From: Candidatus Beckwithbacteria bacterium GW2011_GWC1_49_16
GTDB taxonomy: Bacteria > Patescibacteriota > Microgenomatia > UBA1400 > CG1-02-47-37
Direction: 5' to 3'
NCBI GenBank assembly: GCA_001029675.1
Contig: CP011210.1
Location: forward strand, 320,193 to 384,192
DNA: 64,000 nt
Below the pieces are notes generated by a model that worked only from the letters and a program-made list of their open reading frames with translations, was not told the origin of the DNA and searched no databases. This document shows positions 1,646 through 34,477 of the stretch, one piece after another. Every line of letters starts with the position of its first letter. Within the stretch, counting starts at the first letter, position 1. The translations under genes and the position numbers were made by a program.

Positions 1646-1661
1646 AGATGTTACAATTACG

Positions 1662-2459
1662 CTAGTTGATTGGCAAAAATATCTCAAACCTTTGTTTGAT
1701 AGGGTTAGGGTTGATTTTCCAATACACCTCGTAATCTCGAATGCCCGCTCTCACCTTATATCCTTTTAATCGACAGTATTTCTCAAGCTCTTTCCAGAAA
1801 AGTGAGAGCATGTTACCAGAGCCACGATATGTGTAAGTTATTACCTTCCCAGGACTGAATGTCATTCGCTTAACGATGCTCTTGAATTCGTTTTTGACCT
1901 TCACCCCTTCATTAGCAAAAGCACAGATTTTGATACGGCTTTCTTTGGGTCGATATCCCTGGTCTTCAAAAATAGAGAGGGTTATAAAATTATTTCTTTT
2001 ATTGGTAAACATTTTACTAAGTTCCTGACAATAACTGTCAATTTTAGCGTATGGTCCGACTTTATTGATGTAATAAACTTCAAAAGGATCTATCGTCTTA
2101 ATTTCAGGATCTACTAATGTCCCATTGCTCTGAAGATTAGAAAGGTATTGTTCTATGTTATTAAGACTAAATTTAAGACGCTCGATCTCATTTTTGATAA
2201 GATGCTTTTTTTCACTGAACAGGTTTGATAAGTTTCCTTTGTTTTTCAAATATCTTTTAATTTCTTCCAGGGATATTCCTAAAGTTGAGAGGAGTAATAT
2301 CATTTGGTAGTCCAGGACTTGCCGCTCTTGATACAGACGATAGTTAGATTGGTTGATTTTGACAGGCTTAAGAACCCCTTTCTCGTCATAAAAGTGGATA
2401 GTCCTCTTAGTCGTGCTAGCTAGCTTGGCGAGTTCGCCTGTAGTGATTAAATTGTTCAT
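1662..2459 (-). CDS. MerR-family transcriptional regulator with C-terminal GyrI-like effector-binding domain (BmrR/AraC-E type)
   Basis: N-terminal MerR helix-turn-helix (TTGELAKLASTTKRTIHFYDEKGVL) followed by a coiled-coil linker and a GyrI-like small-molecule-binding C-terminal half. The gene is AT-rich relative to its flanks. Confidence 0.75.
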   Translation of the reverse strand: MNNLITTGELAKLASTTKRTIHFYDEKGVLKPVKINQSNYRLYQERQVLDYQMILLLSTLGISLEEIKRYLKNKGNLSNLFSEKKHLIKNEIERLKFSLNNIEQYLSNLQSNGTLVDPEIKTIDPFEVYYINKVGPYAKIDSYCQELSKMFTNKRNNFITLSIFEDQGYRPKESRIKICAFANEGVKVKNEFKSIVKRMTFSPGKVITYTYRGSGNMLSLFWKELEKYCRLKGYKVRAGIRDYEVYWKINPNPIKQRFEIFLPIN

Positions 2460-2462
2460 TAT

Positions 2463-2494
2463 TTGACAATAACGTAACGTTATACTTTATGATA
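2463..2494 (+). promoter_or_regulatory. MerR-type promoter/operator: TTGACA, long spacer containing perfect 7-1-7 inverted repeat ATAACGT-A-ACGTTAT (2469-2483), TATGAT
   Basis: The palindrome lies between the divergently transcribed MerR-like regulator and the UvrA-like gene. A -35 TTGACA (2463-2468) and a -10-like TATGAT (2489-2494) give a ~20-bp spacer typical of MerR-regulated promoters. Confidence 0.4.
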
Positions 2495-2510
2495 GCCTAT
2501 AACTTACTAA

Positions 2511-4772
2511 GTGTCAAATATGATGAACTCAATAAATATAAAAGGCGCTCGAGAGAATAATCTCAAAGGTATAGACGTCACCATTCCTAGAAACAAGATT
2601 GTATGTCTGGTAGGTGTATCTGGGTCGGGAAAGTCTACTATCGCTTTTGACATCATCGCCAGAGAGGGAGAAAGGCAGTATTTTGAATCCTTACCTTCCT
2701 ACGCTAGAAGATATCTCCATAAGAGCAATAGACCAGAAGTTGACGATATTAAGGGAGTTTCAGCTTCGATTGTGATAAGTCAAGATCGAGTAAGGGGTAA
2801 TCCGAGATCAACTGTTGGAACGCTTACGGAGGCTTATACCTATTTGCGCTTATTGTACTCGCGGGTCGGTTTGCCTTCGATGGACTCGTTCTACTATTCT
2901 TTTAATCACCCTTACGGTGCCTGTAAGAAATGCAAAGGTTTAGGTCGGGCGGTTGAAGCTAATGTCGATAAAATTTTGGACAAAAATAAAAGTCTTAACG
3001 AGGGCGCCTTAATCCCCAAAGAATGGTATGTGGGTGGTAGGCAATGGAGTATTATTAGGGCCAGTCGTTACTTTGACATGGACGAAAAATTGAAAGACTT
3101 CAGTGATTATGAGTTGGATAAACTGTTGTTTGCGCCGCCGGAAATGCTGGAATCGGACGGCGAGTATATTGTTGACCGATGGACCTTTCAGGGGATTGTC
3201 TACCGGATCCAACATAGAAATACCAAAGTCCACCGCGGACCATCCAAGCGGGACTTGCAGTATTTTGATTTTGTCGATTGCCCAGAATGCCATGGTGGTC
3301 GTCTTAATGAGAAGGCTTTAGCTGTTCGAATAAATGGCAAGAGTATAAGTGAGGCAGGCAACATGCCATTAGAGGAATGTTTTACATTTGTTAGAAGCAT
3401 TGATCATATAAATGCTAGAGTTATAAAGCCAAGATTGGAAGAGCAACTTCAAAGTTTGATCAACATTGGTGTTGGTTATTTGTCCTTAAATAGATCTGCA
3501 GACACATTATCAGGGGGTGAAGCTCAGAGAGTAAAAATGGCAAGGCAATTGAGCTGTGATTTGATTGAGAGTGTATATGTTCTTGATGAGCCAACAGCCG
3601 GTCTTCATCCGCGAGATGTAGCCAAAGTGGTTCAGAATCTAAAAAGACTACGAGACAATGGTAATAGTGTCATAGTGGTTGAACATGATGAAGCGGTAAT
3701 AAGAAACGCAGATCATTTAGTGGAAATTGGACCAGGCGGAGGCAAAAAAGGTGGGGAAATTGTAGCGGAAGGGAAAATTGGCAATTTGATAGCCAGCCCT
3801 AGGTCATTGACGGGAAAGTATCTAGAGGGAGATAAGAAAATTGAAGCAAAGAGAGGCTACAGAAAAGCTTTGGGCTACTTAAAAGTAACGAATGCGACTA
3901 GACACAATTTAAAGAATTTGAATATAGATATCCCTACAGGTGTCTTAGTAGCCCTGACGGGAGTATCAGGTTCGGGCAAGAGCTCACTGGTTGAAGAGGT
4001 TCTAAATCAGCACAGGAGTAAGGTCATTTTAATTGATCAGGGTCAAGTTGGAGCTAATAAGAGAGGTTGTATTGCCACTTATGTGGGAGGATTTGACAGA
4101 ATTAGAAAGTATTTTGCTGACGAGCACAGAATGCGCCCAAGTTTTTTTAGCTTTAACTCTCAGGGACGTTGTGAGCTCTGTAAAGGTTTAGGCTTTATCG
4201 AGATGGATATGAATTTTTTAGGAGACGTCAAGATAAGGTGCGAAAGTTGTGGTGGTTCAAGATATAAAGAAAAAGTTTTGAGATACAAATATAAGGGTAA
4301 GAACATAGCTGAAGTTTTGTCTATGACAGCTGCTGAAATAAGAGATTTTTTTGATAGCCAAGAAATAAAAGAACAAATGGGCTTGCTTGACGAAGTCGGG
4401 TTGGATTATATGGAGATGGGACAAACTCTAGACACTTTATCAGGAGGAGAATCGCAAAGGTTAAAATTAGCCAGCAAGTTGCAAGCAAAAGGAGAGTTTT
4501 ATATCTTAGACGAACCTACTTCTGGTTTACATTTTGCTGATGTTGAAAAATTGCTAAATCTTTTAAATAGGCTTGTTGATAGTGGCAACACTGTCTTGGT
4601 AGTTGAACACAATCTCGACGTGATTAAAAATGCCGATTGGGTTATTGATCTGGGTCCAGAAGGAGGGGAAAAAGGAGGTCGGGTTGTAGCCCAAGGGAAA
4701 CCGGTTAAGATAAGTGGTAGCAACCAATCTCACACCGGAACATGTTTGAAGGAAGTCTTGAAAAATGGTTAA
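2511..4772 (+). CDS. UvrA-like double ABC ATPase paralog (truncated, class II/III UvrA; DrrC/Ecm16-like)
   Basis: Two ABC modules carry Walker A GVSGSGKST/GVSGSGKSS and signatures LSGGEAQR/LSGGESQR. CxxC zinc modules are present (CKKCKGLG, CPECHGG, CELCKGLG, CESCGG). At 753 aa it is well short of canonical ~940-aa UvrA, implying loss of the UvrB-binding/insertion domains. AT-rich. Confidence 0.85.
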   Translation: MSNMMNSINIKGARENNLKGIDVTIPRNKIVCLVGVSGSGKSTIAFDIIAREGERQYFESLPSYARRYLHKSNRPEVDDIKGVSASIVISQDRVRGNPRSTVGTLTEAYTYLRLLYSRVGLPSMDSFYYSFNHPYGACKKCKGLGRAVEANVDKILDKNKSLNEGALIPKEWYVGGRQWSIIRASRYFDMDEKLKDFSDYELDKLLFAPPEMLESDGEYIVDRWTFQGIVYRIQHRNTKVHRGPSKRDLQYFDFVDCPECHGGRLNEKALAVRINGKSISEAGNMPLEECFTFVRSIDHINARVIKPRLEEQLQSLINIGVGYLSLNRSADTLSGGEAQRVKMARQLSCDLIESVYVLDEPTAGLHPRDVAKVVQNLKRLRDNGNSVIVVEHDEAVIRNADHLVEIGPGGGKKGGEIVAEGKIGNLIASPRSLTGKYLEGDKKIEAKRGYRKALGYLKVTNATRHNLKNLNIDIPTGVLVALTGVSGSGKSSLVEEVLNQHRSKVILIDQGQVGANKRGCIATYVGGFDRIRKYFADEHRMRPSFFSFNSQGRCELCKGLGFIEMDMNFLGDVKIRCESCGGSRYKEKVLRYKYKGKNIAEVLSMTAAEIRDFFDSQEIKEQMGLLDEVGLDYMEMGQTLDTLSGGESQRLKLASKLQAKGEFYILDEPTSGLHFADVEKLLNLLNRLVDSGNTVLVVEHNLDVIKNADWVIDLGPEGGEKGGRVVAQGKPVKISGSNQSHTGTCLKEVLKNG

Positions 4773-4825
4773 TACTTTTTCTGCATGGTTTTTAATATTG
4801 TTCAAGACTGCTAGAATAGTTTAGT

Positions 4826-6747: not shown

Positions 6748-6954
6748 ATGCCGATTAAAAAATTAAAGTGCTATTTTTGCCAAAACAAGACGGCTCCCAA
6801 CTATCGGGAGTTTGAAGTTTTGGCAAAGTTTACCAGCGATCGAGGCAAGATTGTGGCTCGAATCCGAAGCGGAGCTTGCGCTAAGCATCAACGCCGGCTG
6901 GTCGCCGAGATTAAAAGGGCACGACATTTAGCCTTGTTACCGTTTGTGGTTTAA
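6748..6954 (+). CDS. rpsR: 30S ribosomal protein S18
   Basis: CYFCQ...YREFEVLAKFTSDRGKI...RITGLCAKHQR-like S18 signature, 68 aa, downstream of ssb. Confidence 0.9.
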   Translation: MPIKKLKCYFCQNKTAPNYREFEVLAKFTSDRGKIVARIRSGACAKHQRRLVAEIKRARHLALLPFVV

Positions 6955-8197
6955 GATGCGTTTTAGAGTACCTTTGACCAAGTTAAGAGGTTTGATTTTA
7001 GGCGTTGCCTTGGTGCTTTTGTCTTTCTGGTTAGGCTGGAGGGTGGGGAGCGTCGGGGGGAAGCCGAGCCTGCAAGGGGTCAAAGAGGTTTTGGTCGACC
7101 GGACGCAGCCAGAGAGTCGGGCCCAAATTGACATGCTGCTTTTCTGGCAGGTGTGGGACACGTTGGAACAAAAATACCTAAACGACGAGGATATCAAGCC
7201 GCAAGAGATGGTCTGGGGGGCAATCGCCGGCATGACTAAGGCTTTGGGTGATCCCTACACCGTATTTTTACCGCCCAAGGAACAGGAAGCCAGTCAAGAG
7301 GAATTAAACGGAACCTTTGAGGGTGTGGGGATTCAATTGGGTTTTAAAGATGAGGTGTTGGCAGTGATCGCACCCTTGTCGGGGATGCCGGCCGAGGCGG
7401 CGGGGGTTAAAGCGGGAGATTTGATTCTACACATTAAGGATGAAAATCGCGGAGTGGATACTGATACTCTGGATATGTCTTTACCCAAAGCAGTGGATAC
7501 GATTCGCGGCCCCAAGGGTACGGCGGTGATCTTGACGCTGCTTCATCAAGGTAAGGTTGATCCGGTGGAGATTGCCATCGTTAGAGACACAATTTTGATT
7601 GCCAGCGTCGAGCTTGATTGGCTTGAGGGCGAGTCGGTGGCTCATCTTAAACTGATGCGCTTTGGCGGCAATACCGACAGCGAGTGGGACGAGGTGGTGG
7701 CGCAAATTGCGGCGCGACAAAATCAAATCCGCGGAGTGGTTTTGGATTTGAGAAACAATCCGGGAGGATTTTTGGACGGAGCGATTCGCTATTCGGGGGA
7801 GTTTTTAGACAGAGGCTTGGTAGTGGTTAAACAAGAAGACGCTGCCGGTTCGATTGAAAGCTACAGCGTTCAGACTCAAGGAAAGCTTAGCGGTGTCCCT
7901 TTGGTGGTGTTGGTAAATGGAGGCAGCGCTTCGTCTTCCGAGATTATGGCGGGTGCTTTGCGAGACCATAACCGGGCGAAACTGGTAGGAGAAAACACTT
8001 TTGGCAAGGGGACGATTCAGGAAGCTTTGGAGTTGTCGGGAGGCGCGGGTTTACACGTCACCACGGCTCAATGGTTGTTGCCCTCTGGGGAAAACATTAG
8101 CCAGGAAGGGTTGGCGCCGCAAGTGGAAGCCAAAGACGATCCGGAAACAGAAGACGTTGACGAACAACTTAACCAGGCGGTGGGGGAATTAAAATGA
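6944..8197 (+). CDS. ctpA: Carboxyl-terminal processing protease (S41 family)
   Basis: N-terminal membrane anchor, PDZ region, and S41 catalytic block LVNGGSASSSEIMAGAL...GENTFGKGTIQ. True start may be the second Met (6956), because the first overlaps rpsR. Confidence 0.85.
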   Translation: MWFKMRFRVPLTKLRGLILGVALVLLSFWLGWRVGSVGGKPSLQGVKEVLVDRTQPESRAQIDMLLFWQVWDTLEQKYLNDEDIKPQEMVWGAIAGMTKALGDPYTVFLPPKEQEASQEELNGTFEGVGIQLGFKDEVLAVIAPLSGMPAEAAGVKAGDLILHIKDENRGVDTDTLDMSLPKAVDTIRGPKGTAVILTLLHQGKVDPVEIAIVRDTILIASVELDWLEGESVAHLKLMRFGGNTDSEWDEVVAQIAARQNQIRGVVLDLRNNPGGFLDGAIRYSGEFLDRGLVVVKQEDAAGSIESYSVQTQGKLSGVPLVVLVNGGSASSSEIMAGALRDHNRAKLVGENTFGKGTIQEALELSGGAGLHVTTAQWLLPSGENISQEGLAPQVEAKDDPETEDVDEQLNQAVGELK

Positions 8198-10823: not shown

Positions 10824-11795
10824 TCAAGCCTTTGGTTTGGCAAGGCGGCGGGGGCGAGATTCGCCTAAGAACACCCCAAGAAAAATGATGACCATTGCTA
10901 GAATTTGGGGCCAGGTGACTGATTCTTTTAGAAGTAAGAATGAAACGGGGATGGCAAAGACTCCGGTGAGATAAATAAACAGAGAGGCTTCGGAAGCCTC
11001 AATTAAATCCTGGCCTTTGATGTAAAAGGTGAGGGCAATAATGGAGCCGAAAAGGGCCATGTAGCCTGAAGCCAAAGCCACCGAGGGGGCTTTGAGCAAA
11101 GTGACCGAAGTAGACAGGCCGGCTTGGTTGAGCATGAAAAACAAGACTATCGCCGAGGCCAAGTAGCCCAAGCCGGTGACCATGAATTTGGGCTTGCCCT
11201 GATAGAATTTCTTGGCCACAAGGTAGTAGACGGCGATAAGCAGGTTGTGAGCCAGCACCAAGAGGTTGCCTAAAAAAGAAAAATTAATTTTTCCTATCCT
11301 GTTAGTTAAAAGCGGCTCGACGACCAAAAGGCCGGTACCAATTAGGGCTAAAGCCAGGCCGAGCCACTCCCGTCTTTCCTGTTTCTCTTTGAGAAAATAG
11401 ATGCCGCCAACGGTGATCAGTAACGGATAAGTGGCGGCAATCAGCGACGCTTCGATGGCCGAAGTTTGTTTGAGGCCGGAGTAGAGTAGGCCCAAAGAGA
11501 TGGGGGTGGCCAGAAGCTCGAGGGCGACAGAATAAAGGATAGTTTTAAGTGATGGTCGATGTTTTACCAGGAGGATTATCAAAAAGGGGAAAATGAGGAT
11601 GGAGGCGATGAGGTAGCGAAGGTAAAGAAACTGAAATGGGGAGACGAAGTTAAGCGAGGGTTTGACCAGGGGTAAAGCCGCGCCCCAAATGACAGCGTTG
11701 ACCAAAAGGAGTAAGTAGGCTTTTTTCCGGGCAGGAGTCATGGGTTTATTTGAGCCTGACGACGACTTGATCCAGGGTGAGGCTTTGTTGTTCAC
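10824..11795 (-). CDS. EamA/DMT-family membrane transporter (10 TM)
   Basis: Two repeated 5-TM EamA-like halves, hydrophobic throughout. The real start is probably the internal Met (MTPARKK), since the first ~50 nt overlap hisS. Confidence 0.5.
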   Translation of the reverse strand: MNNKASPWIKSSSGSNKPMTPARKKAYLLLLVNAVIWGAALPLVKPSLNFVSPFQFLYLRYLIASILIFPFLIILLVKHRPSLKTILYSVALELLATPISLGLLYSGLKQTSAIEASLIAATYPLLITVGGIYFLKEKQERREWLGLALALIGTGLLVVEPLLTNRIGKINFSFLGNLLVLAHNLLIAVYYLVAKKFYQGKPKFMVTGLGYLASAIVLFFMLNQAGLSTSVTLLKAPSVALASGYMALFGSIIALTFYIKGQDLIEASEASLFIYLTGVFAIPVSFLLLKESVTWPQILAMVIIFLGVFLGESRPRRLAKPKA

Positions 11796-12987
11796 CGGTG
11801 GTCATGTCTTTGAGAGTAACTTTGTCGGCTTTAGCCTCGTCGGGGCCGATCATCAACACAAAAGGAATATTTTTGGCGGCAGCATATTTTAGTTGTTTAT
11901 CAAGATTTTCATCCTGAGGAAATATTTCCGTTTTAATGTCAGCAGTTCTCAATGTGTTGGCCAAGTTTAAAGATTTTCCTTCGTATCCCGGAAATATGGT
12001 AATCAGCGCTTTTATTACCGAAGTTGCTTTAGGGATTAGATTCATTTCAGAGGCGGCTTCAACCATTCGATCAAATCCGAAAGCAATACCTACCGCCGGC
12101 GTGTTTGTTCCACTTAGTTGATCAATCAGCTTATCGTAGCGACCGCCACCGCCTAGCGATCCCGATTCAAATTCCGGAATAATAACTTCAAAAATCATGC
12201 CGGTATAATAATCAAGTCCTCGGGCCAGATAGGGGATGAATTCGATTCTATCCTCAGGTACGCCAGAAGAGATGCTAAACCCAATAATTTTTTCTAGTTG
12301 TTTTGTCGGCCGAGCTTGTTTTAATAGGTTGTTTATTTTTTGAAACTGCTCTAGGGTTACTCCTTTCTTTTTTAACTCCATTTGTACCTGGTCAACAGTT
12401 TTTTTATCCAGTTTGTCAAGAGATTGAATCACTGAAAGTGATTTTTGTTCGGTTATCCCAGACTTTTTGATAACATCAAAAAGAATTTGCCGGTCGTTGA
12501 TACGTAGCGTCACGTTGGGAAAACCGACATTTTTAAAAGCGAAATAGGTACAAGCGATGATTTCGGTATCGGCCAACGGTGAAGTGGTGCCAAAGATATC
12601 AATGTCGCACTGAGTAAATTCCCGATATCTACCTTTTTGTGGTTTATCCGCCCGGTAAACATTTTGGAATTGATAGCGACGGAAATATTTGGGTAATTGA
12701 TTTTTGTACTGGGTTAAAACTCTGGCAGTGGGTACGGTTTGGTCATAACGGAGGCCAACTTCTCTGTTTCCCCGATCTTTAAAGATGTAAATCAACTTAT
12801 CAGCTTCCTTGCCATATTTTCCAAGTAATAAATCGGCGTATTCCAGAGTGGGAGTCTCTAGGGGTTCAAAGCCAAAAAGTTCAAAGGTTTGTTTAATTTT
12901 TTCCAGCACGAAATCCCGCTTTCTTTTTTCATTGGGTAAAAAGTCCCGAAAACCTTTTAGAGTCTGGGGCAGGTTTAGTTTAGCCAT
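11746..12987 (-). CDS. hisS: Histidyl-tRNA synthetase
   Basis: Class II aaRS motifs and the HisRS N-terminus (LPQTLKGFRDFLP), GGGRYD motif 3 region, C-terminal anticodon-binding domain. Confidence 0.9.
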   Translation of the reverse strand: MAKLNLPQTLKGFRDFLPNEKRKRDFVLEKIKQTFELFGFEPLETPTLEYADLLLGKYGKEADKLIYIFKDRGNREVGLRYDQTVPTARVLTQYKNQLPKYFRRYQFQNVYRADKPQKGRYREFTQCDIDIFGTTSPLADTEIIACTYFAFKNVGFPNVTLRINDRQILFDVIKKSGITEQKSLSVIQSLDKLDKKTVDQVQMELKKKGVTLEQFQKINNLLKQARPTKQLEKIIGFSISSGVPEDRIEFIPYLARGLDYYTGMIFEVIIPEFESGSLGGGGRYDKLIDQLSGTNTPAVGIAFGFDRMVEAASEMNLIPKATSVIKALITIFPGYEGKSLNLANTLRTADIKTEIFPQDENLDKQLKYAAAKNIPFVLMIGPDEAKADKVTLKDMTTGEQQSLTLDQVVVRLK

Positions 12988-13009
12988 AGAGTTATTTTAT
13001 CATTAAATT

Positions 13010-13690
13010 TTAAAAAGAGAGATCATTATTAAGTTTTTGCATCATGCAGCAGGCTATTCCTGGATAAAGTCCGGGAAACAAGGGGAAAAACTTGATGCCG
13101 TCAACGGAGGCTTCTTCAAAATCTTTGAATCCTTTGGGGTCAAGCCCTGATAATCTGCCGGTGACAATGAAAAACTGCTGAGGTTCTTGTCTGGTTTCTC
13201 CTTCAAAGAAAGAGTTTAAAACTTTTTCTAGATCTTGAGCCACTTGAGGTGAATTTTTTGGTCCGCATTGAATTTCTAAAGAGTTAGGGATGAATTGACA
13301 CAGTGGCCCGGTCGGTAAAAGCCCCGGCCACAAAACCACTTTACCGATATCAAGATTTTTTGCCAGTTCAATATTTTTCCAGTTAGGGTCGCCTAGAATG
13401 ATAAAAATACCACAGTCAGATTCCGCCCCATGAATGTCAATTACTTGCTGGTATTCACTGCCAGTTTGGATGAGGCGGAAAGCGAGTCTTTCTTCCAGTA
13501 ATTTAGAATCGGGATTGCCCGGACCAGATCGGTTAAGATCAGCCTCAAGGTAGCGCTGGTTTTCTGTCAGGGCTTGAGGATTGGCAACAATCGAATCGAA
13601 ATTAAATTTCGACTTTAACTTTTCCACGATTGGAATAGAAAAAGCTTCGTCGCCGTGTACGGCTGTTAAAATTAATGTTTCTTTTGTCAT
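13010..13690 (-). CDS. Succinylglutamate desuccinylase/aspartoacylase (AstE/AspA) family zinc deacylase
   Basis: Zinc-ligand-like motifs HGDE (N-terminus), DLNR and DIHGAE are in the order characteristic of the AstE/AspA (M14-like) family. Confidence 0.6.
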   Translation of the reverse strand: MTKETLILTAVHGDEAFSIPIVEKLKSKFNFDSIVANPQALTENQRYLEADLNRSGPGNPDSKLLEERLAFRLIQTGSEYQQVIDIHGAESDCGIFIILGDPNWKNIELAKNLDIGKVVLWPGLLPTGPLCQFIPNSLEIQCGPKNSPQVAQDLEKVLNSFFEGETRQEPQQFFIVTGRLSGLDPKGFKDFEEASVDGIKFFPLFPGLYPGIACCMMQKLNNDLSF

Positions 13691-13706
13691 ATTTGTTTTA
13701 TGTTTT

Positions 13707-14600
13707 CTAAAGGCGGGCTTGTTCTAGGATTAGAATATTTTTTTGGCAGGTAAGACCGGTGTTTTGGCGACTTTGGTAGCTGAAGCAAAAGATCATAGAG
13801 AGACCGTAGGTTTGTAATAGTGATAGAGATTGGTTAAAAGGGGTGAACCAACTTCCAGTTTCTGAATCGTCCTGTCCAAAGAAAGCATAACCCAGTCCCT
13901 CTGGCAGAATTTCCAAAATCGTATTCTTTATGCTTTGTAGCGCCTCAGAAGTTAGCCTATCTTTCAGTTCGGCCAGTCGGTAGACTTTCCGTAAATCATT
14001 TATTGATACTTTGTTATTAATTAAGTCGAGCAGCTCTTGGTATGGAATTAGTCTTAAGTCTGAGGTTTGGATGTTTTCACTTGAGGCTAGGGTGATTATG
14101 GCAATACCGCCTTTTCTTAAAATCGTGCTAGCTTCCTTGAGAATTAAGGGGCTGATAGCTAGAGGGTTATAGTTTAGTAGATAGTCTAAGACTACCAAGT
14201 CTTGACTATTATCTTTAATTTCGGTATTCGTCGCGTTTGTAAGAAGAGGAGTAATTGATGGAGATTTTCTTTCTCTTAAACTGGTGATTATCTGGTTATC
14301 AAAATCAACTACTCTTAGGTCTCGGCAGGGGACGTCTAGGCTGTTGGATATAAAACTGATCACTTGGTCTGGTTCTTCAGGCGTGCCGGTTCCTAACATG
14401 GTTACTGATATAGGGACTGTGAAGCGGTTTCTGAGTTTCTCAGACACCAGGGGTATGTTAGCAACGGTGGCCAAGCTGGCTCCGATGGGAGGATGATTGT
14501 TGAGCACCTCCTCGCTAGGGCCTTGTTGAAAAAAATCTTCTAAACCTTTTCGGTAAGTAATTCGAGTGAGTACCTCACGGCGAGACTCTGCTGGCAACAT
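13707..14600 (-). CDS. Hypothetical protein, possible class-I SAM-dependent methyltransferase fold
   Basis: Weak motif-I-like VTMLGTGTPEE, post-I acidic VVDFD, motif II-like DLVVLDYLL, motif III-like LRKGGIAIITL. This is a low-confidence fold guess only. Confidence 0.3.
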   Translation of the reverse strand: MLPAESRREVLTRITYRKGLEDFFQQGPSEEVLNNHPPIGASLATVANIPLVSEKLRNRFTVPISVTMLGTGTPEEPDQVISFISNSLDVPCRDLRVVDFDNQIITSLRERKSPSITPLLTNATNTEIKDNSQDLVVLDYLLNYNPLAISPLILKEASTILRKGGIAIITLASSENIQTSDLRLIPYQELLDLINNKVSINDLRKVYRLAELKDRLTSEALQSIKNTILEILPEGLGYAFFGQDDSETGSWFTPFNQSLSLLQTYGLSMIFCFSYQSRQNTGLTCQKNILILEQARL

Positions 14601-14601
14601 A

Positions 14602-15564
14602 CTAAGTTAACAGATTTAGTAGCAGGCGGTAGAACTTTTCTGCTTTTACTCCTGAAATAATTTTGACAGCTTTAGTTTTGGAGGGAATAAGTTTTGTTTG
14701 CCCTCTATTTTTACCAGCCAAGTTGACTTGAATTCTTCCCCGGTAGGTTTTAGTGACGATGTTTGGATCAATCATTGCGGCGCTGACTAAAGGGTCATAG
14801 TAACAGTTGAAGTCGTAGTTATTTTTAAGAATTAACTCTCTTATCACTAGGCTATTTTTTTTGGTCAGCCGTTTTTGTTTAAGGTTTTGATTAAACTGCT
14901 CTAATGTTTTTTTGAGTTGGTTTTTAACGAGGGGAACCATGGCTGGTACGTAAAGAGTGGCGTTTATTGGAATTATTGTGGTAGGTATTGATGAGTTAAA
15001 GATAATATCGGCAGCCTCTGGATCAAGGTAAAGATTATAGTCAAGAATGTCTTGGGAAAGCGGAGGGCCGGGCATGGATTTAAATGCGCCTCCCATTAAA
15101 ATTATTTGATCGACTTTAACAATTAATGTGTCACGGCACTTTTCTATAAGTGTGGCAATATTGGTGAGGGGGCCTAGGCAGACTAAGGTAATTTTCTGGC
15201 GTTCGCTTTTAATTAAGTCGGCAAGTTTATCGAGAGAGTTATAAACCAAGATTTTTGGAGAAGGGTCTTGAGGGAGGGGAATTTTTTCCAATAGTGTCAG
15301 CTTATTGGCTCTGACACGGTCGATTTTTGGAAATACAGCCTGCCAGTTTCTATTCATGGCTCTAGTTTTACCTTTTATGATAGGGATGGGGTTGTTTATA
15401 AAAGTGAGAATTCTGGCTAAGTTACTGGTACCCAAGTTGGTTTCAGAAACACCATAAACTGTACTAAATGCTTTTATGTTAAATTTTTTAGAAAGTTGTA
15501 GCATTAAGATAGCAATTAGATCGTCGTTGCCTACATCGGTGTCTATATAGATGGGTTTTTTCAT
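14602..15564 (-). CDS. Inosine-uridine-preferring nucleoside hydrolase family protein
   Basis: N-terminal calcium-binding aspartate cluster IDTDVGNDD (the DxDxxxDD IU-NH fingerprint); ~320 aa. Confidence 0.8.
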   Translation of the reverse strand: MKKPIYIDTDVGNDDLIAILMLQLSKKFNIKAFSTVYGVSETNLGTSNLARILTFINNPIPIIKGKTRAMNRNWQAVFPKIDRVRANKLTLLEKIPLPQDPSPKILVYNSLDKLADLIKSERQKITLVCLGPLTNIATLIEKCRDTLIVKVDQIILMGGAFKSMPGPPLSQDILDYNLYLDPEAADIIFNSSIPTTIIPINATLYVPAMVPLVKNQLKKTLEQFNQNLKQKRLTKKNSLVIRELILKNNYDFNCYYDPLVSAAMIDPNIVTKTYRGRIQVNLAGKNRGQTKLIPSKTKAVKIISGVKAEKFYRLLLNLLT

Positions 15565-17276
15565 ATTTTCTTCATTTGCTCAAATGGCTGATCGTTATTT
15601 TTTGAGGCCTGAATTATTAGAGATGCGGCTCTATCTGAGTTGTCGTTGACAACTACCATATCGATGATTCCAGCCTCAAGCATGGCTTGAGCTTTTGAGG
15701 TAGTTATGTCTAGTTCTTGAAGGGAACGCTTCAATCGTGTGTCAACGTTTCCTTGATTTCTAGTAATTAGTCTATTTTTGAGTTCTCTGAGTGATGGGGG
15801 GAGAACAAGTACCAGCTTGGCTTGAGGAAGGAGTTTTTTAAGCTGGATAGCGTTATCGGTGCCTTCAAAAACGCAGAAAGCGTCGTTCGGAGTATTAGTT
15901 AGTTGGGTGATGATTTCTCTTTTTGTAACTCCATAGAGTTCGCCATTGGCCCGGTAGATTCCAGCGGTAAGCATTTCTCCGTTTCTCACTTGTTTTAAGA
16001 AATACTCTTTGGTTGTCGGTTGAATTCCTAAAATTTCTGCAGTATTTCTAGAAGGTCGAGTAGTTACCCTTTTAATCTGAGTTGAACCTGGTGCCTGATT
16101 GATAACTATTTGGGTTAAGGTAGTTTTACCTACCCCAGAGCTACCGAAGAGAATAATGACTTGTCCGGCTTTTTGGTTAAGTTCTTCTGGGAGCTCTGTA
16201 GGCGTTTGCGGTAGTTGCTCAAAGCCCTCGAGACTGAAAAGAATTTCTGTGCCTGACTGGAGAGTGATTAATGCTTCTGTTAGATAGTCAATAACGTTTT
16301 CCTCTTTTTCAGCCGCCCTGATTTGATTTGTAATGCTGGCCAACAAACCGTAGCCGGCGTCGGAGATATCTTGAAAAGTAAGGATCCTGCCAGATTTTTT
16401 TTGGATAGATTCTAAGAGTTTGAGGTTTGCCCAGATCACGCCTCGACTGAAAGGAATTAATGTTTCTGGAGGGATACTAGCTCCCGAACCGTCAGAGAAA
16501 GGGGCAAAGTAGGGAATAGTATAGTAAATGGCTTTTTCGTTTTTTGTCTCTAGGAAAAGTTTGCCGCCATCAAATCTTAAATCTCGACAGCAGACCCAAT
16601 CGAATATGTTCCTAACGGGCATAACTGCTTGATAGCCGGGAGTAATACCTGGAGAGCCAGTTTCAGTTTCTCGGTCGTATGGTCCTATACCACCATAAAA
16701 GCCCACAACTTCTAGACTTTGATTCTGAAAGATTTGAAGATATGCATTAAGGCAGCCTGGCCACCAACCGTCGTCAACAAGGATAATTTTGCTGTCGGTA
16801 CCCGTTTGGGTTATTTCTTCTGCCAGTATCTTGATTTGTTTTTCTAAAGAGGGCTCGCCTGGTCGGGGGCCGATGACTTCTCCGGCTGAATTGATTATTC
16901 TACCGATGCTTAAAATAGAGTAATCTTTCCCAGACTGTTGGTTGGGAGAAGAGATGAACCTATCAAGAACAACAACTCTGGCGTTTTGTTGTTTAGCATC
17001 AGCGACAGCCTGGTCAAGCAAAAAGGAGAGTTGTTGGTAGAAGGGCTTCTCGGCAACAGACACAATGGGAACTTTTTGTTTTTGGAAGGCAGCGGTTAGG
17101 GCATCTAAGATAGATAGGTTGAAAGCTTCAATGGCATCGTTGGGAATGTCAGCTTCAGTTAAACTGGGTATTTTAGTAATGGCGCCAAGGGTATCTTGAG
17201 TAAGCACGAAAGCCCCACCGGCCCAAAGAGCTTCAGGAGTAGATGTTAACTTTGAATAGGTTTTTAACTTTTCCAT
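15561..17276 (-). CDS. Fusion protein: unknown ~370-aa N-terminal domain + C-terminal guanylate-kinase-like domain
   Basis: C-terminal half carries the GMP-kinase P-loop and NMP-binding blocks (LFGSSGVGKTTL...TTRPSRN...E..G..Y.F). The N-terminal half has no motif I can assign; the KIILVDDGWWPG segment faintly resembles a PRTase PRPP loop. Confidence 0.6.
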   Translation of the reverse strand: MEKLKTYSKLTSTPEALWAGGAFVLTQDTLGAITKIPSLTEADIPNDAIEAFNLSILDALTAAFQKQKVPIVSVAEKPFYQQLSFLLDQAVADAKQQNARVVVLDRFISSPNQQSGKDYSILSIGRIINSAGEVIGPRPGEPSLEKQIKILAEEITQTGTDSKIILVDDGWWPGCLNAYLQIFQNQSLEVVGFYGGIGPYDRETETGSPGITPGYQAVMPVRNIFDWVCCRDLRFDGGKLFLETKNEKAIYYTIPYFAPFSDGSGASIPPETLIPFSRGVIWANLKLLESIQKKSGRILTFQDISDAGYGLLASITNQIRAAEKEENVIDYLTEALITLQSGTEILFSLEGFEQLPQTPTELPEELNQKAGQVIILFGSSGVGKTTLTQIVINQAPGSTQIKRVTTRPSRNTAEILGIQPTTKEYFLKQVRNGEMLTAGIYRANGELYGVTKREIITQLTNTPNDAFCVFEGTDNAIQLKKLLPQAKLVLVLPPSLRELKNRLITRNQGNVDTRLKRSLQELDITTSKAQAMLEAGIIDMVVVNDNSDRAASLIIQASKNNDQPFEQMKKI

Positions 17277-29925: not shown

Positions 29926-32505
29926 TTAAGCTTCGTCTTTGTCGACCAGAGCCACGGCGGCTACTTGGTCGGCCGCTTTGGCAAAACGCATCAGGATGAC
30001 GCCTTGAGTGGTGCGGCCCAGGCGTTTGATGTTTTTTAGAGGCAACCTGATCACCTGGGCTTTTTTGCTGGTTAAGATGGCGGCTTCGATTTTTTCGGTG
30101 ACCAAATGGGCGGAGACGATTTTGCCGGTTTTTTCGGTGAGGCGCGCCACCCTGACGCCTTTGCCGCCTCTTTTTTGAACGGGGAAACTGGCGATAGCGG
30201 TCCTTTTACCAATCCCCTTCTGGGTGACGACGAGCAAGTCGTGAAAGAATTTGCGTTTGCCTTTTTCTTTTTGGCGGCCAGTAGGATAGACGGCCATGCC
30301 CACGACAAAATCTTTAAGAGTGAGTCTGATGCCGCGGACCCCCTTGGCGGCCCGGCCCATGGGCCGGGCGTCGGTTTCTTTAAAGCGGATCGATTGACCC
30401 AGGTGAGAGATAAGAACGATGTCGTCTGAGCCTGAAGTTTGTTTGACCCAGACTAATTCGTCGCCGCGAGTGAGGTTTAAAGCGATGATGCCAGAAGAAC
30501 GGATGTTGGCGTAATCCAGCGTGGGGGTTTTTTTGATGGTTCCGCCTCTAGTGACCATAAGCAAAAAGCCTTGACTGGTTTTATTTTTGTCCAGGTTTAA
30601 TATCGACTGGATGGTTTCGTCGCTGTCGATACTGATCAGGTTGATGATGGCCTGGCCCTTAGCTTGGCGGGAGCCTTGGGGTAGTTCGAAGACTTTGAGT
30701 TTGAACACCCTGCCTTTATTGGTAAAGATGAGTAAGGTGTCGTGGGTGTTGGCCGAGAAAATGCGGCTGATTTCGTCCTGCTCTTTGGTGGTCATGCCGG
30801 AAACACCCTTGCCGCCGCGGCGCTGGGAACGATAGGTAGCCACCGGGATTCTTTTGATGTAGCCTGATTTGGTCATGGTGACCAGGCATTCTTCTTCGGG
30901 TTCGAGGTCTTCTTCGGAAAAGCTAATAAGCGAGGACTTGATTATTTTGGTGCGCCTATCGTCACCGTAGGTTTTGTCTAAGTGATCGATTTCAGCCTCG
31001 ATGGCGGAAAACACTTTTTGGGGGCTTAGAAGCAGGGCAACAAGCTGGTCGATAGCAATTTTCACTTCTTGGTATTCGTCTTCAATTTTTTTTCTTTCCA
31101 AGGCGGCCAAACGTCTCAACTGCATGTCTAAGATGGCCTGGGCTTGGATGTCAGAAAGCTTAAAATTTTTCATCAAGTTTAACTTGGCGGTGTCGGCGTC
31201 GCGGGACTTTTTGATGGTGCTAATCACCGCGTCTAAGTGGTCCAGGGCGATTTTCAGGCCCTCGAGGATGTGGGCCCTTAATTTGGCGGCCTTGAGATTG
31301 AATTGGCTGCGGCGGATTAAAACCAGCTGGCGGTGTTTTAAATACTCCAAAAGAATTTGTTTGAGGTTTAGAAGCTGTGGGGTGTCGTCTACCAAAGCGA
31401 CCATGTTGGCGGGAAAGTTGGTTTGCAGTTCGGTATGTTTGAAAAGGTTGTTTAAAACCGCTTTGGGTTTGGCGTCTCTTTTTAATTCGATCGCTATTTG
31501 GAGGCCGGTTCTGTCTGACTCGTCGCGGATGTCTCTGATGCCGTTCAATTTCTTGTTTTTGACCAGGTCGGCAATTTTGGCGATGAGTCTAGCTTTGTTG
31601 ACTTGGTAAGGAAGCTGAGTGACTAAGATTTTGTAGGCACCGCCTTTTGATTCGACGATGTTGGTTTTGGCCCGAGTGGTGATGCTGCCCTTACCGGTGG
31701 TGTAGAGTTCTTTCAAGTTTTCGGCGTTGTAGATGATGCCGCCGGTAGGAAAATCCGGTCCGGGAAGAACCTGCATCAATTCTTCTATTTCGGCTTGGCT
31801 GGTGAGACTGCCGGCCAAAACTTGGGGTTTGATTTCTTCTGGGGCGATATTTTGGGGAAATTTTTTGCCTTTAATCTCCGGGGCTTTGGGGTCGGGGGTG
31901 ACTTTAGTCTTTTTGATGAGAATTTTTATGGCGGTGATAACTTCTGATAAGTTGTGGGGAGGAATTTTGGTAGCCATACCGACGGCGATGCCATCGGCAC
32001 CCATCAGGAGTAAGTTGGGAAGGTTAGCCGGTAAGACCGTCGGCTCTTTTTGGGAGCCGTCGAAGTTGTCGATAAACTTGACTGTATCTTTGTCGATATC
32101 TTCTAACAGTTCCTGGGAAATTTTAGCCAGTCGGGCTTCGGTGTAGCGCATGGCGGCGGGAGAATCGCCGTCGACTGAACCGAAGTTGCCGTGGCCGTCG
32201 ATTAAAGGATAGCGCAGGGAAAAATCTTGGGCCATGCGCACCAGGGCGTCGTAGACAGCCATGTCGCCGTGGGGGTGGAATTTGCCTAAAACTTCGCCGA
32301 CGACCCGGGCCGATTTTTTATGGGGAGATTTATGGTTGATGCCTTGCTGGTCCATGGCGTAGAGGATGCGCCGGTGGACGGGTTTTAAGCCGTCGCGAAC
32401 GTCGGGCAAGGCCCGAGCGACGATAACAGACATAGCGTAATCCAGGTAAGACCTTTGCATTTCGTCCACGATTTTTACTGGTTTGATTTGACCGATTGAA
32501 TCCAT
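29926..32505 (-). CDS. gyrA: DNA gyrase subunit A
   Basis: N-terminus ...[33 protein letters not shown] with active-site Tyr region, C-terminal beta-pinwheel repeats; 859 aa. Confidence 0.95.
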
Positions 32506-32509
32506 ATCT

Positions 32510-34477
32510 TTAGGCTAGAAAGCCTGCCAAGAGTAAGGCAACCACGTTTAAGATCTTGATCATCGGATTAATGGCCGGCCCGGCGGTGTCTTTGTAGGGA
32601 TCACCGACGGTGTCGCCGGTGACGGCGGCCTGGTGGGCGGGGCTGCCTTTGCCGCCAAAGCGGCCTGCCTCGATGTATTTTTTGGCGTTGTCCCAGGCGG
32701 CGCCCCCGGTAGTCATGGATAGCCCGACGAAGATGCCGGTTAAAATGGAACCGATTAACATTCCCCCCAGAGCCGTTGGTCCCAGAGTAAAGCCGACGAC
32801 GATGGGGGCGACCACGGGAATTAAGGCAGGAACAACCATTTGCTTTAAGGCGGCGCGGGTGACGATGTCGACTGCCCGGCCGTATTCCGGCTGGGCGCGT
32901 CTTTCCATGATGCCTTTGATTTCTTTGAATTGGCGCCTGACCTCTTTGACTACGGCTTGGGCGGCGGTGCCGACCGCTTCCATGGACAAGGCGGCAAAAA
33001 GATAGCTCAAACTGCCGCCGATAAACAAGCCGGAGATAATATAAGGATTGTCCAGGCTAAAGTTGATGGCGTGACCAGCGGAACCCAATTCCTGGGTATA
33101 GGCGGCAAATAAAACCAGGGCAGCCAATCCGGCCGAACCGATGGCGTAGCCTTTGGTGACGGCCTTGGTGGTGTTACCGACGGCGTCCAAGCGATCGGTC
33201 ACCAGGCGGATTTTTTGTGGCTGGTGGGTCATCTCGACAATGCCGCCGGCGTTGTCGGTAATGGGACCGAAAGAGTCGATGGCGACGATAATGCCGGTTA
33301 AGCTCAGCATGCTGGTGGCGGCAATAGCCACGCCGAAAATCCCGGCGAGTAAATAGGCGGCCAGCGAAGCCAGAGCGATGACCAGAACCGGCAGAAAGGT
33401 GGCCTTGAGGGAAACGCTGAGCCCGGCGATGATGTTGGTGCCGTGGCCGGTGGTGGAAGCTGTCGCGATGGAGCGGACCGGGGAGAAGTTTCTTGAAGTA
33501 TAGTACTCGGTGATGATGACAAACAGGCCAGTGGTGACTAGGCCGACGACGGCAGTAAGATAAAGATTCAAAGAAGCCAAACCGACAGTCACCGGGTAAA
33601 ACAGGATCAGAGCTAAAACGCCGCTTGAAACCAGACCTTGGTAAAGAGCGGTCATGATGTTTTTGTTTTTAGGCAGGAAAACAAAGCGGCTGCCGATAAT
33701 GGAGCTTAAAATGGCGATGGCGCCTAACGCCAGTGGATAAGTGATAAAGCTTTCTTGGTTGAAGACGATTTTTGCCAGTAACATGGCGGCGATCAGGGTA
33801 ACGGCGTAGGTTTCAAAAAGGTCGGCGGCCATGCCGGCGCAGTCGCCGACGTTGTCCCCTACCAGATCGGCGATGACGCCGGGGTTTCTGAGATCGTCTT
33901 CGGGAATGCCTTTTTCGATTTTGCCGACCAGGTCGGCACCGACGTCGGCCCCCTTAGTATAGATGCCGCCGCCTAATCGAGCAAAAACAGAGATTAAAGA
34001 GCCACCGAAGCCGAGGCCGATTAAGGCATTAAGGTCTTGGGTAATAAAATAGAATAAGCTGACGACCAGTAAACCGAGACCGACTACCAGCATGCCGGTA
34101 ACGCTGCCGCCTTTGAAAGCGGTATCAAGCGCAGGTTTTAAACCTTTTTTGGCGGCTTGAGCAGTTCTGACGTTGGCGTGCACGGCGATGCTCATGCCTA
34201 AAAATCCCGCCAAAGCCGAGGCGGCGGCCCCGAGAAGGAAGCCGACGGCGGTGTTTAAACCAAGAAAATACCACAAGGCGGAAGCCAGGGGAAGGCTTAA
34301 AAAGGCGACGTTTTTGGTTTGACGGGCAAGATAGGCGTTTGAACCCTCGGCAATGGCTTGGGCGATGGCGGTCATCTTGGGAGTGCCTTGGGGTAAAGAA
34401 AGAACCCAACGGATTAAGTAGAGGCTGTAGAAGATAGCGGCCAGGGAGGACAGAATAATAAACCAAAGGCTGTTCAT
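32510..34477 (-). CDS. hppA: Membrane-bound H+-translocating pyrophosphatase (K+-independent type)
   Basis: 16-TM protein with PPase signatures [18 protein letters not shown] and DNAGGIVEM. The GNTTKA motif carries Lys, which indicates K+-independence. Confidence 0.9.

Follow-up and report, generated by a model that had tools for sequence, protein, structure and literature searches.

MerR-activated promoters typically carry their -35 and -10 boxes 19 bp apart, a spacing that is over-long for sigma-70, and in the mer control region a regulator sitting at the dyad activates one promoter and hinders its own opposite promoter. Class II(a) UvrA proteins, in turn, are defined as lacking the UvrB-binding domain and zinc module 1, while their insertion domain is present and functionally essential (PMC9328131, PMC10192343). 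One such protein, Ecm16, gives echinomycin resistance without UvrB, UvrC or UvrD, for which its ATPase activity and its insertion domain are required (PMC9328131, PMC10192343). Here, we describe a locus in which a MerR-type control region and a class II UvrA come together. It is a divergent gene pair (the cassette, positions 1662-4772) in a 64-kb stretch of the genome of Candidatus Beckwithbacteria bacterium GW2011_GWC1_49_16 (contig CP011210.1, positions 320,193 to 384,192; hereafter the window), encoding a BmrR-type MerR/GyrI-like regulator and a UvrA-like ATPase. On balance, the pair probably forms a mobile cassette of two genes for xenobiotic response, which is exchanged among Microgenomates of the candidate phyla radiation (CPR) and serves as an inducible defence against DNA-binding toxins.

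The spacer between the regulator and UvrA-like open reading frames (ORFs) reads tatTTGACAATAACGTAACGTTATACTTTATGATagc. An earlier note on this DNA had placed a perfect palindrome in the spacer of a TTGACA/TATGAT promoter with about 20 bp between the boxes; the layout is as it was read there, and the spacing is exactly 19 bp, with the dyad centre (2476) lying 2 bp off the centre of the spacer on the -35 side. The MerR-type promoter geometry proposed from this layout, TTGAC[A/T]-19 bp-TAnnnT with a dyad in the spacer, proved to be kept in 14 loci, that is, in the window and in all 13 relatives whose sequence covers the upstream region, and the spacer length is invariant. The bare palindrome was set aside as evidence, since the window contains 11 perfect 7-1-7 repeats where about 3.6 would be expected; its statistical weight comes from its position and conservation, not from the palindrome by itself. 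The operator sequence is unique in the window, where 0.07 matches would be expected allowing up to 2 mismatches. Exactly the same sequence occurs once per locus in seven related GTDB loci (L001-L006 and L009), and also in two copies of the window's own locus (L023 and L024). The other six related loci carry operator variants with 1-3 differences, and in most related loci the palindrome is 8-1-8 (TATAACGTAACGTTATA).

A consensus scan also found a promoter on the minus strand, TTGACA-17-TATCAT (2517..2489), which agrees with the consensus at 11 of 12 positions. Judging from the sequence, transcripts from this promoter would start within the palindrome and then enter the regulator gene. Both ORFs were recovered at the positions given earlier (regulator 1662-2459, minus strand; UvrA-like 2511-4772, plus strand), and the 753-aa reading of the latter, with a 51-bp gap to the regulator, exists as an ORF. 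However, its GTG at 2511 overlaps the opposing -35 box, while homologues, which begin MNxIxIKGARENNLK, and gene callers start at the ATG codons downstream (database cluster 750 aa; gene callers 749 aa). The true start is thus probably ATG 2520 or 2523, which gives a product of 750 or 749 aa and an intergenic region of 60-63 bp. As a side observation, the uvrA-like ATG lies only 6-8 nt past the -10 box in four loci (L005, L006, L011 and L012), implying leaderless mRNAs. The window and nine other loci have an extra ~15-30 nt there, and the opposing TTGACA falls inside this segment in the window and eight of these loci (all but L008).

The two genes are inherited together. A scan of one genome per GTDB species returned close relatives of the ATPase at 15 loci (61-81% identity), and a MerR/GyrI gene (53-64% identical) was divergently adjacent in 12 of the 12 loci with enough upstream DNA. 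When the flanking ORFs of 13 species-level loci were compared all against all, the two genes of the cassette were the only ones in common and the flanks were otherwise unrelated, indicating that the unit of inheritance is the gene pair with its shared control region. Contig sizes also coincide 28 times between the best-120 homologue lists of the regulator and the ATPase. No description of a MerR/GyrI and class II UvrA pairing was found in the searchable literature.

The BmrR-type MerR/GyrI architecture proposed for the regulator was borne out by Pfam domains and by fold comparison. Its helix-turn-helix (HTH) domain scored 55.4 bits against PF13411 (MerR_1; cut-off 21.6) and 44.9 bits against PF00376 (cut-off 28.2), and its GyrI-like (SbmC-fold) domain scored 46.3 bits against PF06445 (cut-off 26). 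The AlphaFold model of the monomer (predicted local distance difference test, pLDDT, 91) consists of the HTH, one long helix (pLDDT ~90-97) and an α/β domain. The closest sequence match in the PDB is EcmrR, with an alignment that spans both domains, and a full-length fold search ranked BrlR, EcmrR and BmrR best, with STM3175, a MerR-like protein that binds albicidin, coming next. Taken by itself, the C-terminal domain matched CTR107 (rhodamine), CtaZ (closthioamide), SAV2435, STM3175, Rob and SbmC, with target-normalised template modelling (TM) scores of 0.64-0.79 against BmrR-C, EcmrR-C, CTR107 and CtaZ. Within this domain, the residues that are invariant in the family include many aromatic ones (Y137, F164, Y169, W222, Y228, Y246 and F258) and acidic ones (E224, E226 and E244), a set that would be compatible with a BmrR-like pocket without proving one. 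Identity within the regulator family is 58-82% among the best 120 clusters listed, and a plasmid search with the regulator gave no close homologue, only generic MerR-HTH similarity over at most 79% of the query.

Lin2189 hydrolases are also among the fold matches of the regulator, and this bears on an alternative in which resistance comes mainly from the regulator, through sequestration or hydrolysis of the toxin by its GyrI-like domain in the manner of STM3175/AlbA or Lin2189/YtkR7, and the ATPase is a co-regulated helper. We consider this improbable: the matches to STM3175 (albicidin), CtaZ (closthioamide) and the Lin2189 cyclopropanoid hydrolases are what such a protein would share, but the regulator combines a single GyrI-like domain with a complete MerR-type DNA-binding domain and coiled coil, and its promoter appears auto-limited, whereas high expression is required for stoichiometric sequestration. 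Moreover, the ATPase is the more conserved partner (68-87% versus 58-82% identity).

UvrA models match the ATPase, and so do all UvrA structures of the PDB. The earlier note had credited the protein with both ABC modules and the zinc fingers; both modules are indeed there, and just two of UvrA's three zinc modules. Walker A motifs lie at aa 32-39 and 481-488, LSGGE signatures at 330 and 640, and Walker B motifs at 354 and 662, and neither ATPase site shows any variation in its Walker A, signature, Walker B or H-loop residues across 45 members of the family. As for the UvrB-binding and insertion domains, both of which had been expected to be missing, the former is absent and the latter is present. 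Residues 119-261 of E. coli UvrA, comprising the UvrB-binding domain and the zinc-module-1 cysteines C120, C253 and C256, are gapped in the ATPase, and HMMER alignments skip residues 118-255 of T. maritima UvrA and chain residues 140-277 of the B. stearothermophilus protein. A second gap relative to E. coli UvrA removes the 24-residue loop 656-679. The UvrB-binding domain and zinc module 1 are gone in all 45 aligned family members; two longer proteins of the family, P0079 (912 aa) and P0084 (817 aa), were considered as possible carriers of the domain and rejected after a sequence check, the extra length being due to a fusion or read-through at the C-terminus of one and to a mis-called N-terminus of the other. 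The insertion domain is kept, with ~115 residues between the two halves of zinc module 2 and a pLDDT of mostly 80-90. Zinc module 3 (C551, C554, C574 and C577) aligns with E. coli C740/743/763/766, and all eight cysteines of modules 2 and 3 are invariant in the same 45 proteins. The AlphaFold model (pLDDT 81) has a TM-score of 0.89 to B. stearothermophilus UvrA (2r6f) and of 0.90 when normalised to Ecm16. This domain content matches the published class II(a) definition, and the architecture is accordingly that of a class II UvrA.

The position of the ATPase among UvrA proteins was then taken from pairwise scores and a tree. Its bit scores are 663 and 649 against class I UvrA structures, 586 against Ecm16 and 517 against D. 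radiodurans UvrA2. By comparison, plasmid proteins of S. clavuligerus and D. radiophilus that lack the UvrB-binding domain score 1086 and 805 bits, respectively, against Ecm16, versus ~530-620 against the class I structures. A bootstrapped neighbour-joining tree was built from 22 sequences over 721 shared columns, namely UvrA of E. coli, B. stearothermophilus and T. maritima, Ecm16, six other proteins without a UvrB-binding domain, halves of tandem UvrA proteins, and eight CPR proteins. The results showed that the CPR family is monophyletic (100% bootstrap) and forms a separate clade, sister to the other proteins without a UvrB-binding domain, and that all single proteins of this kind split from class I with 83.5% bootstrap. 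Neither a grouping of the CPR proteins with class I nor one with the Ecm16 clade received any bootstrap support (0% each). Therefore, the DrrC/Ecm16-type membership suggested earlier did not hold, as the ATPase lies outside the Ecm16/DrrC subclade (586 bits versus 805-1086; 0% bootstrap); the grouping with repair UvrA, which the earlier note had named as one part of an outcome that would speak against its view, was not seen in this tree either. As far as sequence comparison goes, the ATPase would be best described as a separate CPR-specific class II UvrA branch with conservative class-I-like motifs. In a search of representative proteins, the only family member among the best 150 matches was P0258 (749 aa, 64% identity); almost all the rest were tandem UvrA proteins of ~1600-1900 aa, which score twice. 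The representative library contains well over 100 clusters of such tandem proteins, which outscore all single-copy proteins in phmmer; those of ~1600 aa look like two units without the UvrB-binding domain, and those of ~1800-1900 aa like two full-length units.

Horizontal acquisition of the cassette, which had been suggested from its AT-richness, is well supported by four lines of evidence: composition, a syntenic relative without the cassette, the identity pattern relative to YchF, and unrelated contexts elsewhere. The block is indeed richer in AT than its flanks, its two genes having a GC content of 0.37 and 0.41 and a third-position GC content (GC3) of 0.41 and 0.37, compared with ~0.50-0.52 and ~0.6 for the flanking genes; a GC3 of ~0.6 also holds for most genes of the window. 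The syntenic relative L034, whose YchF is 68% identical, has the gene order CysRS, PPDK, aminotransferase, another ORF, ychF, rpsF, ssb, rpsR, protease and rplI and no cassette; the other ORF (6949-7971, plus strand; 340 aa, no Pfam match) takes the place of the cassette. In a second relative, other genes precede ychF, and the aminotransferase-ychF slot seems to be a variable insertion point. Among 5.8 billion proteins, the best non-self match of YchF is 68% identical and identity then drops fast to ~50%, whereas the ATPase finds matches of up to 87% and of at least 67% throughout the best 120 clusters listed, which carry the labels Roizman-, Ames-, Gottesman-, Beckwith- and Dojkabacteria. It is ~80% identical to Roizmanbacteria and Amesbacteria proteins, versus 68-75% to those of other Beckwithbacteria. 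Elsewhere, the cassette occurs in unrelated contexts and its GC content there equals the lower GC content of its hosts, which points to a lower-GC Microgenomates donor. At the borders of the cassette, no tRNA gene and no Rfam RNA was found, and neither the ORF list nor the gene calls contained an integrase. The features of the locus are collected in Table 1.

Table 1 Positions of the cassette features in the window (aa, amino acids; the strand cell is empty for features without orientation).
Feature	Positions	Strand	Basis or remarks
Divergent control region between the start codons, with two face-to-face promoters and overlapping -10 boxes	2460..2519		Sequence, 14-locus comparison, promoter scan
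-35 box TTGACA, uvrA-like promoter	2463..2468	+	TTGAC[A/T] in 14/14 loci, fixed 19 bp from the -10 box
Operator (predicted), perfect 7-1-7 palindrome ATAACGT-A-ACGTTAT	2469..2483		Within the 19-bp spacer
-10 box TATGAT, uvrA-like promoter	2488..2493	+	TATTAT or TATAAT in relatives
-10 box TATCAT, regulator promoter	2489..2494	-	5-bp overlap with the plus-strand -10 box; TATAAT there in relatives
-35 box TTGACA, regulator promoter	2512..2517	-	Overlaps GTG 2511, just upstream of ATG 2520; TGTCAA in 9/14 loci
UvrA-like ABC ATPase, class II, 750 aa	2520..4772	+	Alternative starts GTG 2511 (753 aa) and ATG 2523 (749 aa)
Deletion junction, aa 119/120 of the ATPase	2874..2879	+	MAFFT map against E. 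coli UvrA; HMMER alignments
Zinc module 2 (C135, C138, C254, C257) around the insertion domain (aa 139-253)	2922..3290	+	Aligned to E. coli C277/280/406/409
Regulator gene, 265 aa	1662..2459	-	MerR winged-HTH aa 6-73, coiled-coil helix aa 77-112, GyrI-like domain aa 117-264
Left junction, cassette/aminotransferase gene	1646..1661		16 bp; ORF list, composition
Right junction, cassette/ychF	4773..4825		53 bp; ORF list, composition

A mechanism can be proposed for the cassette from the MerR paradigm. A dimer of the regulator would act as a BmrR/EcmrR-type activator on the palindrome in the uvrA-like promoter, whose spacer of 19 bp is over-long. As long as no ligand is bound, the dimer would keep this promoter off, and with the operator covering the start region of the regulator's opposite promoter, its own synthesis would be limited as well. 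A small, probably planar or aromatic molecule would bind to the GyrI-like domain, upon which the dimer would under-twist and kink the spacer, realign the -35 and -10 boxes and switch the UvrA-like gene on. The product would be a DNA-scanning double ABC ATPase that is unable to recruit UvrB; by analogy with Ecm16 and DrrC, it may recognise drug-distorted DNA via its insertion domain and use ATP to relieve toxicity without excision repair and without UvrB, UvrC and UvrD.

Several points weigh against the reading of the cassette as a toxin defence. Beyond the domain architectures, the promoter and operator geometry with its conservation, the two-gene linkage and the horizontal acquisition, all of which were observed, the ligand activation, the identity of the ligand and the drug-DNA resistance draw on homology and gene linkage. 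With the ATPase outside the Ecm16/DrrC subclade, a transfer of function from Ecm16 spans a long evolutionary distance, and the tree that places it there is small and distance-based and was computed without DrrC and D. radiodurans UvrA2. Six class II uvrA genes were inspected, from Clostridium, Listeria, Staphylococcus, B. cereus, Deinococcus and Streptomyces, and no MerR gene is annotated beside any of them (the plasmid gene tables behind this check are incomplete), which leaves the pairing without a characterised precedent. D. radiodurans UvrA2 and other class II UvrAs show no clear phenotype (PMC9328131). Furthermore, over the shared core the ATPase is 47-48% identical to class I UvrA and ~43% to Ecm16, and no other uvrA, uvrB or uvrC was found among the annotated genes of the 64-kb window, in which not every ORF was scanned.

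The last two points also bear on the alternative that the ATPase is the sole, degenerate housekeeping UvrA, still working in nucleotide excision repair, with the regulator as an incidental neighbour. Over the shared core, the similarity of the ATPase to class I UvrA slightly exceeds that to Ecm16 or D. radiodurans UvrA2, no second uvrA turned up within the annotated genes, and the protein passes the older TIGR00630 model (799 bits, cut-off 729.8); on the other hand, it fails NF001503, the class I equivalog (820 bits, cut-off 1147), and the clean absence of the UvrB-binding domain and zinc module 1 in 45 of 45 members means that UvrB could not be loaded in the known way. The gene is also absent from the same slot in L034, compositionally foreign and found in unrelated contexts elsewhere, its linkage to the regulator is constant across loci, and the tree gives 0% bootstrap to a grouping of the CPR proteins with class I. 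Literature on uvrA or nucleotide excision repair in CPR bacteria yielded a single relevant remark, which likewise argues against a sole copy: most Parcubacteria genomes have a "second copy of uvrA" (PMC4508563). A housekeeping role is thus very improbable.

A different alternative keeps the cassette ligand-inducible and gives the ATPase a role other than drug resistance, such as dealing with endogenous or oxidative lesions or stalled protein-DNA complexes, or stationary-phase mutagenesis, the GyrI-like domain then sensing a metabolite or stress. Outside antibiotic producers, the roles of class II UvrA are unclear or linked to mutagenesis and UV (PMC9328131), and stationary-phase mutagenesis has been proposed for P. 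putida UvrA2. The distinctness of the CPR clade from the Ecm16/DrrC subclade and the great diversity of ligands bound by GyrI-like domains fit such a role too. We nevertheless regard it as rather unlikely, because the proteins closest to the regulator in full-length structure (BmrR, EcmrR, BrlR and STM3175) all serve as multidrug or toxin sensors, and because horizontal spread as a self-contained sensor and effector is typical of resistance determinants.

PADLOC matched the regulator to mad1 (4e-11), the N-terminal half of the ATPase to mad3 (273 bits) and its C-terminal half to mad8 (120 bits), as would be expected if the pair were a fragment or relative of the MADS anti-phage defence system. 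The MADS models were built from HHpred matches to PDB proteins, mad1 is a widespread regulator, and mad6-8 are mandatory (10.1101/2023.03.30.534895); this way of building the models accounts for strong mad1, mad3 and mad8 matches to MerR-HTH and UvrA-like proteins. The MADS reading was rejected as extremely improbable, since only these generic models match and the partner genes are absent: no methylase, kinase, nuclease or other mad gene flanks the pair in the window or at the 13 loci, the ATPase is one fused UvrA carrying zinc modules specific to UvrA, and a scan of viral contigs gave no relative of the ATPase. It may be added, for users of these models, that they can yield false partial MADS calls on any pair of MerR and UvrA genes.

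A more far-reaching version of the toxin-defence reading can also be imagined, in which the cassette would be a CPR-specific, horizontally traded "sense-and-clear" module. Here, the promoter DNA itself would be part of the sensor, a drug on the operator and/or the GyrI-like domain would jointly set the twist of the spacer, toxin on DNA would thus be sensed directly by the cell, and the UvrA without a UvrB-binding domain would strip the DNA-bound toxin. The operator core ACGT-A-ACGT contains two CpG steps, and such steps are favoured by quinoxaline-type bis-intercalators and anthracyclines. We hold this version to be decidedly improbable; if true, ultra-small episymbionts would thereby be able to withstand DNA-intercalating antibiotics from the bacteria or hosts around them.

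The window around the cassette carries housekeeping genes, namely PPDK, aminotransferase, ychF, rpsF, ssb, rpsR and a CtpB-like protease, and further on gyrB and gyrA. Proteins 100% identical to the regulator and YchF of the window are found in Candidatus Beckwithbacteria GW2011_GWB1_47_15 (CPR/Microgenomates) on a contig of ~1.05 Mb, so that the guess of a reduced-genome organism, made from the letters of the window, was correct. Two other low-GC islands were seen. The first (11746-17276, minus strand; GC3 0.38-0.42 versus ~0.6) encodes HisRS, an AstE/AspA-like protein, a 297-aa ORF without a Pfam match, an inosine-uridine nucleoside hydrolase, and a 571-aa protein with a guanylate-kinase-like C-terminus. 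Its HisRS gene lies next to EamA, the same syntenic position as in relatives, which makes allelic replacement likelier than insertion. The second (51818-54673, minus strand; GC3 0.34-0.36) encodes TyrRS, a 276-aa ORF without a Pfam match, tRNA-Tyr(GTA) (53833-53919) and a GNAT acetyltransferase; the presence of a synthetase together with its cognate tRNA in a compositionally foreign block is worth noting. In addition, a membrane H+-pyrophosphatase gene (32510-34477) stands between gyrB (34474-36444) and gyrA (29926-32505), all on the minus strand within 29926-36444. Its ends overlap or almost abut the two gyrase genes, an unusual break in the gyrBA pair.

The cassette bears on the question of what class II UvrA proteins do in organisms other than antibiotic-producing actinomycetes, as it ties one distinct clade of them to a dedicated BmrR-type sensor in more than 12 species-level genomes and many more metagenome contigs. 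This linkage argues that these ATPases answer to xenobiotics rather than to UV-type damage, and it offers an experimental handle, as the ligand of the regulator should reveal the substrate of the ATPase. It would also suggest that genome-reduced CPR bacteria, which have shed much of their metabolism, still gain and exchange self-contained defences against DNA-targeting toxins. Both protein families are known already, and public annotation assigns each protein to the right family, one under the name "MerR family transcriptional regulator" and the other as "excinuclease ABC subunit UvrA" or "daunorubicin resistance protein DrrC". What is new is that a BmrR-type sensor and a class II UvrA are obligately paired, that their MerR promoter is conserved across CPR lineages, and that there is a distinct, horizontally spreading CPR clade; the advance is in linkage, regulatory logic and clade, not in a new kind of molecule.

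Compared with BmrR/bmr of B. subtilis and EcmrR of E. coli, the cassette has the same order of MerR winged-HTH, coiled coil and GyrI-like domain in its regulator, and its operator dyad likewise lies inside a 19-bp -35/-10 spacer. However, the identity is ~20%, the target is a UvrA-like ATPase instead of an efflux pump, and regulator and target are divergent with overlapping promoters. In this last respect, the cassette resembles the mer control region of Tn21/Tn501 (MerR, PmerT/PmerR), where two promoters likewise diverge and overlap, one dyad lies in a 19-bp spacer with a slight offset towards the -35 box, and the regulator gene is transcribed the opposite way across its own operator; in contrast to mer, the sensor of the cassette would take an organic ligand in its GyrI-like domain instead of a metal at a cysteine site, and there is one target gene rather than an operon. 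On the side of the ATPase, class I UvrA (E. coli, B. stearothermophilus and T. maritima) has the highest raw shared-core similarity, and the N-terminal motifs EGxRxYxESL and FSFNxPxGAC are class-I-like, whereas equivalents of E. coli residues 119-261 and 656-679 are missing and the gene is not a housekeeping one here. The plasmid and chromosomal class II uvrA products of Firmicutes, Deinococcus and Streptomyces, often plasmid-borne, also lack the UvrB-binding domain and align contiguously over 97-100% at 40-45% identity, and the CPR proteins stand apart from them with 100% bootstrap. Ecm16 of Streptomyces lasalocidi and DrrC of S. peucetius, the class IIa self-resistance proteins, resemble the ATPase in length (~750-800 aa) and in domain content: zinc module 1 and the UvrB-binding domain are missing, while two ABC sites, zinc modules 2 and 3 and the insertion domain are kept. 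Unlike these two, the ATPase of the cassette belongs to a separate clade (~43% identity to Ecm16), lies outside any biosynthetic gene cluster, and comes with a dedicated MerR/GyrI sensor in a CPR host.

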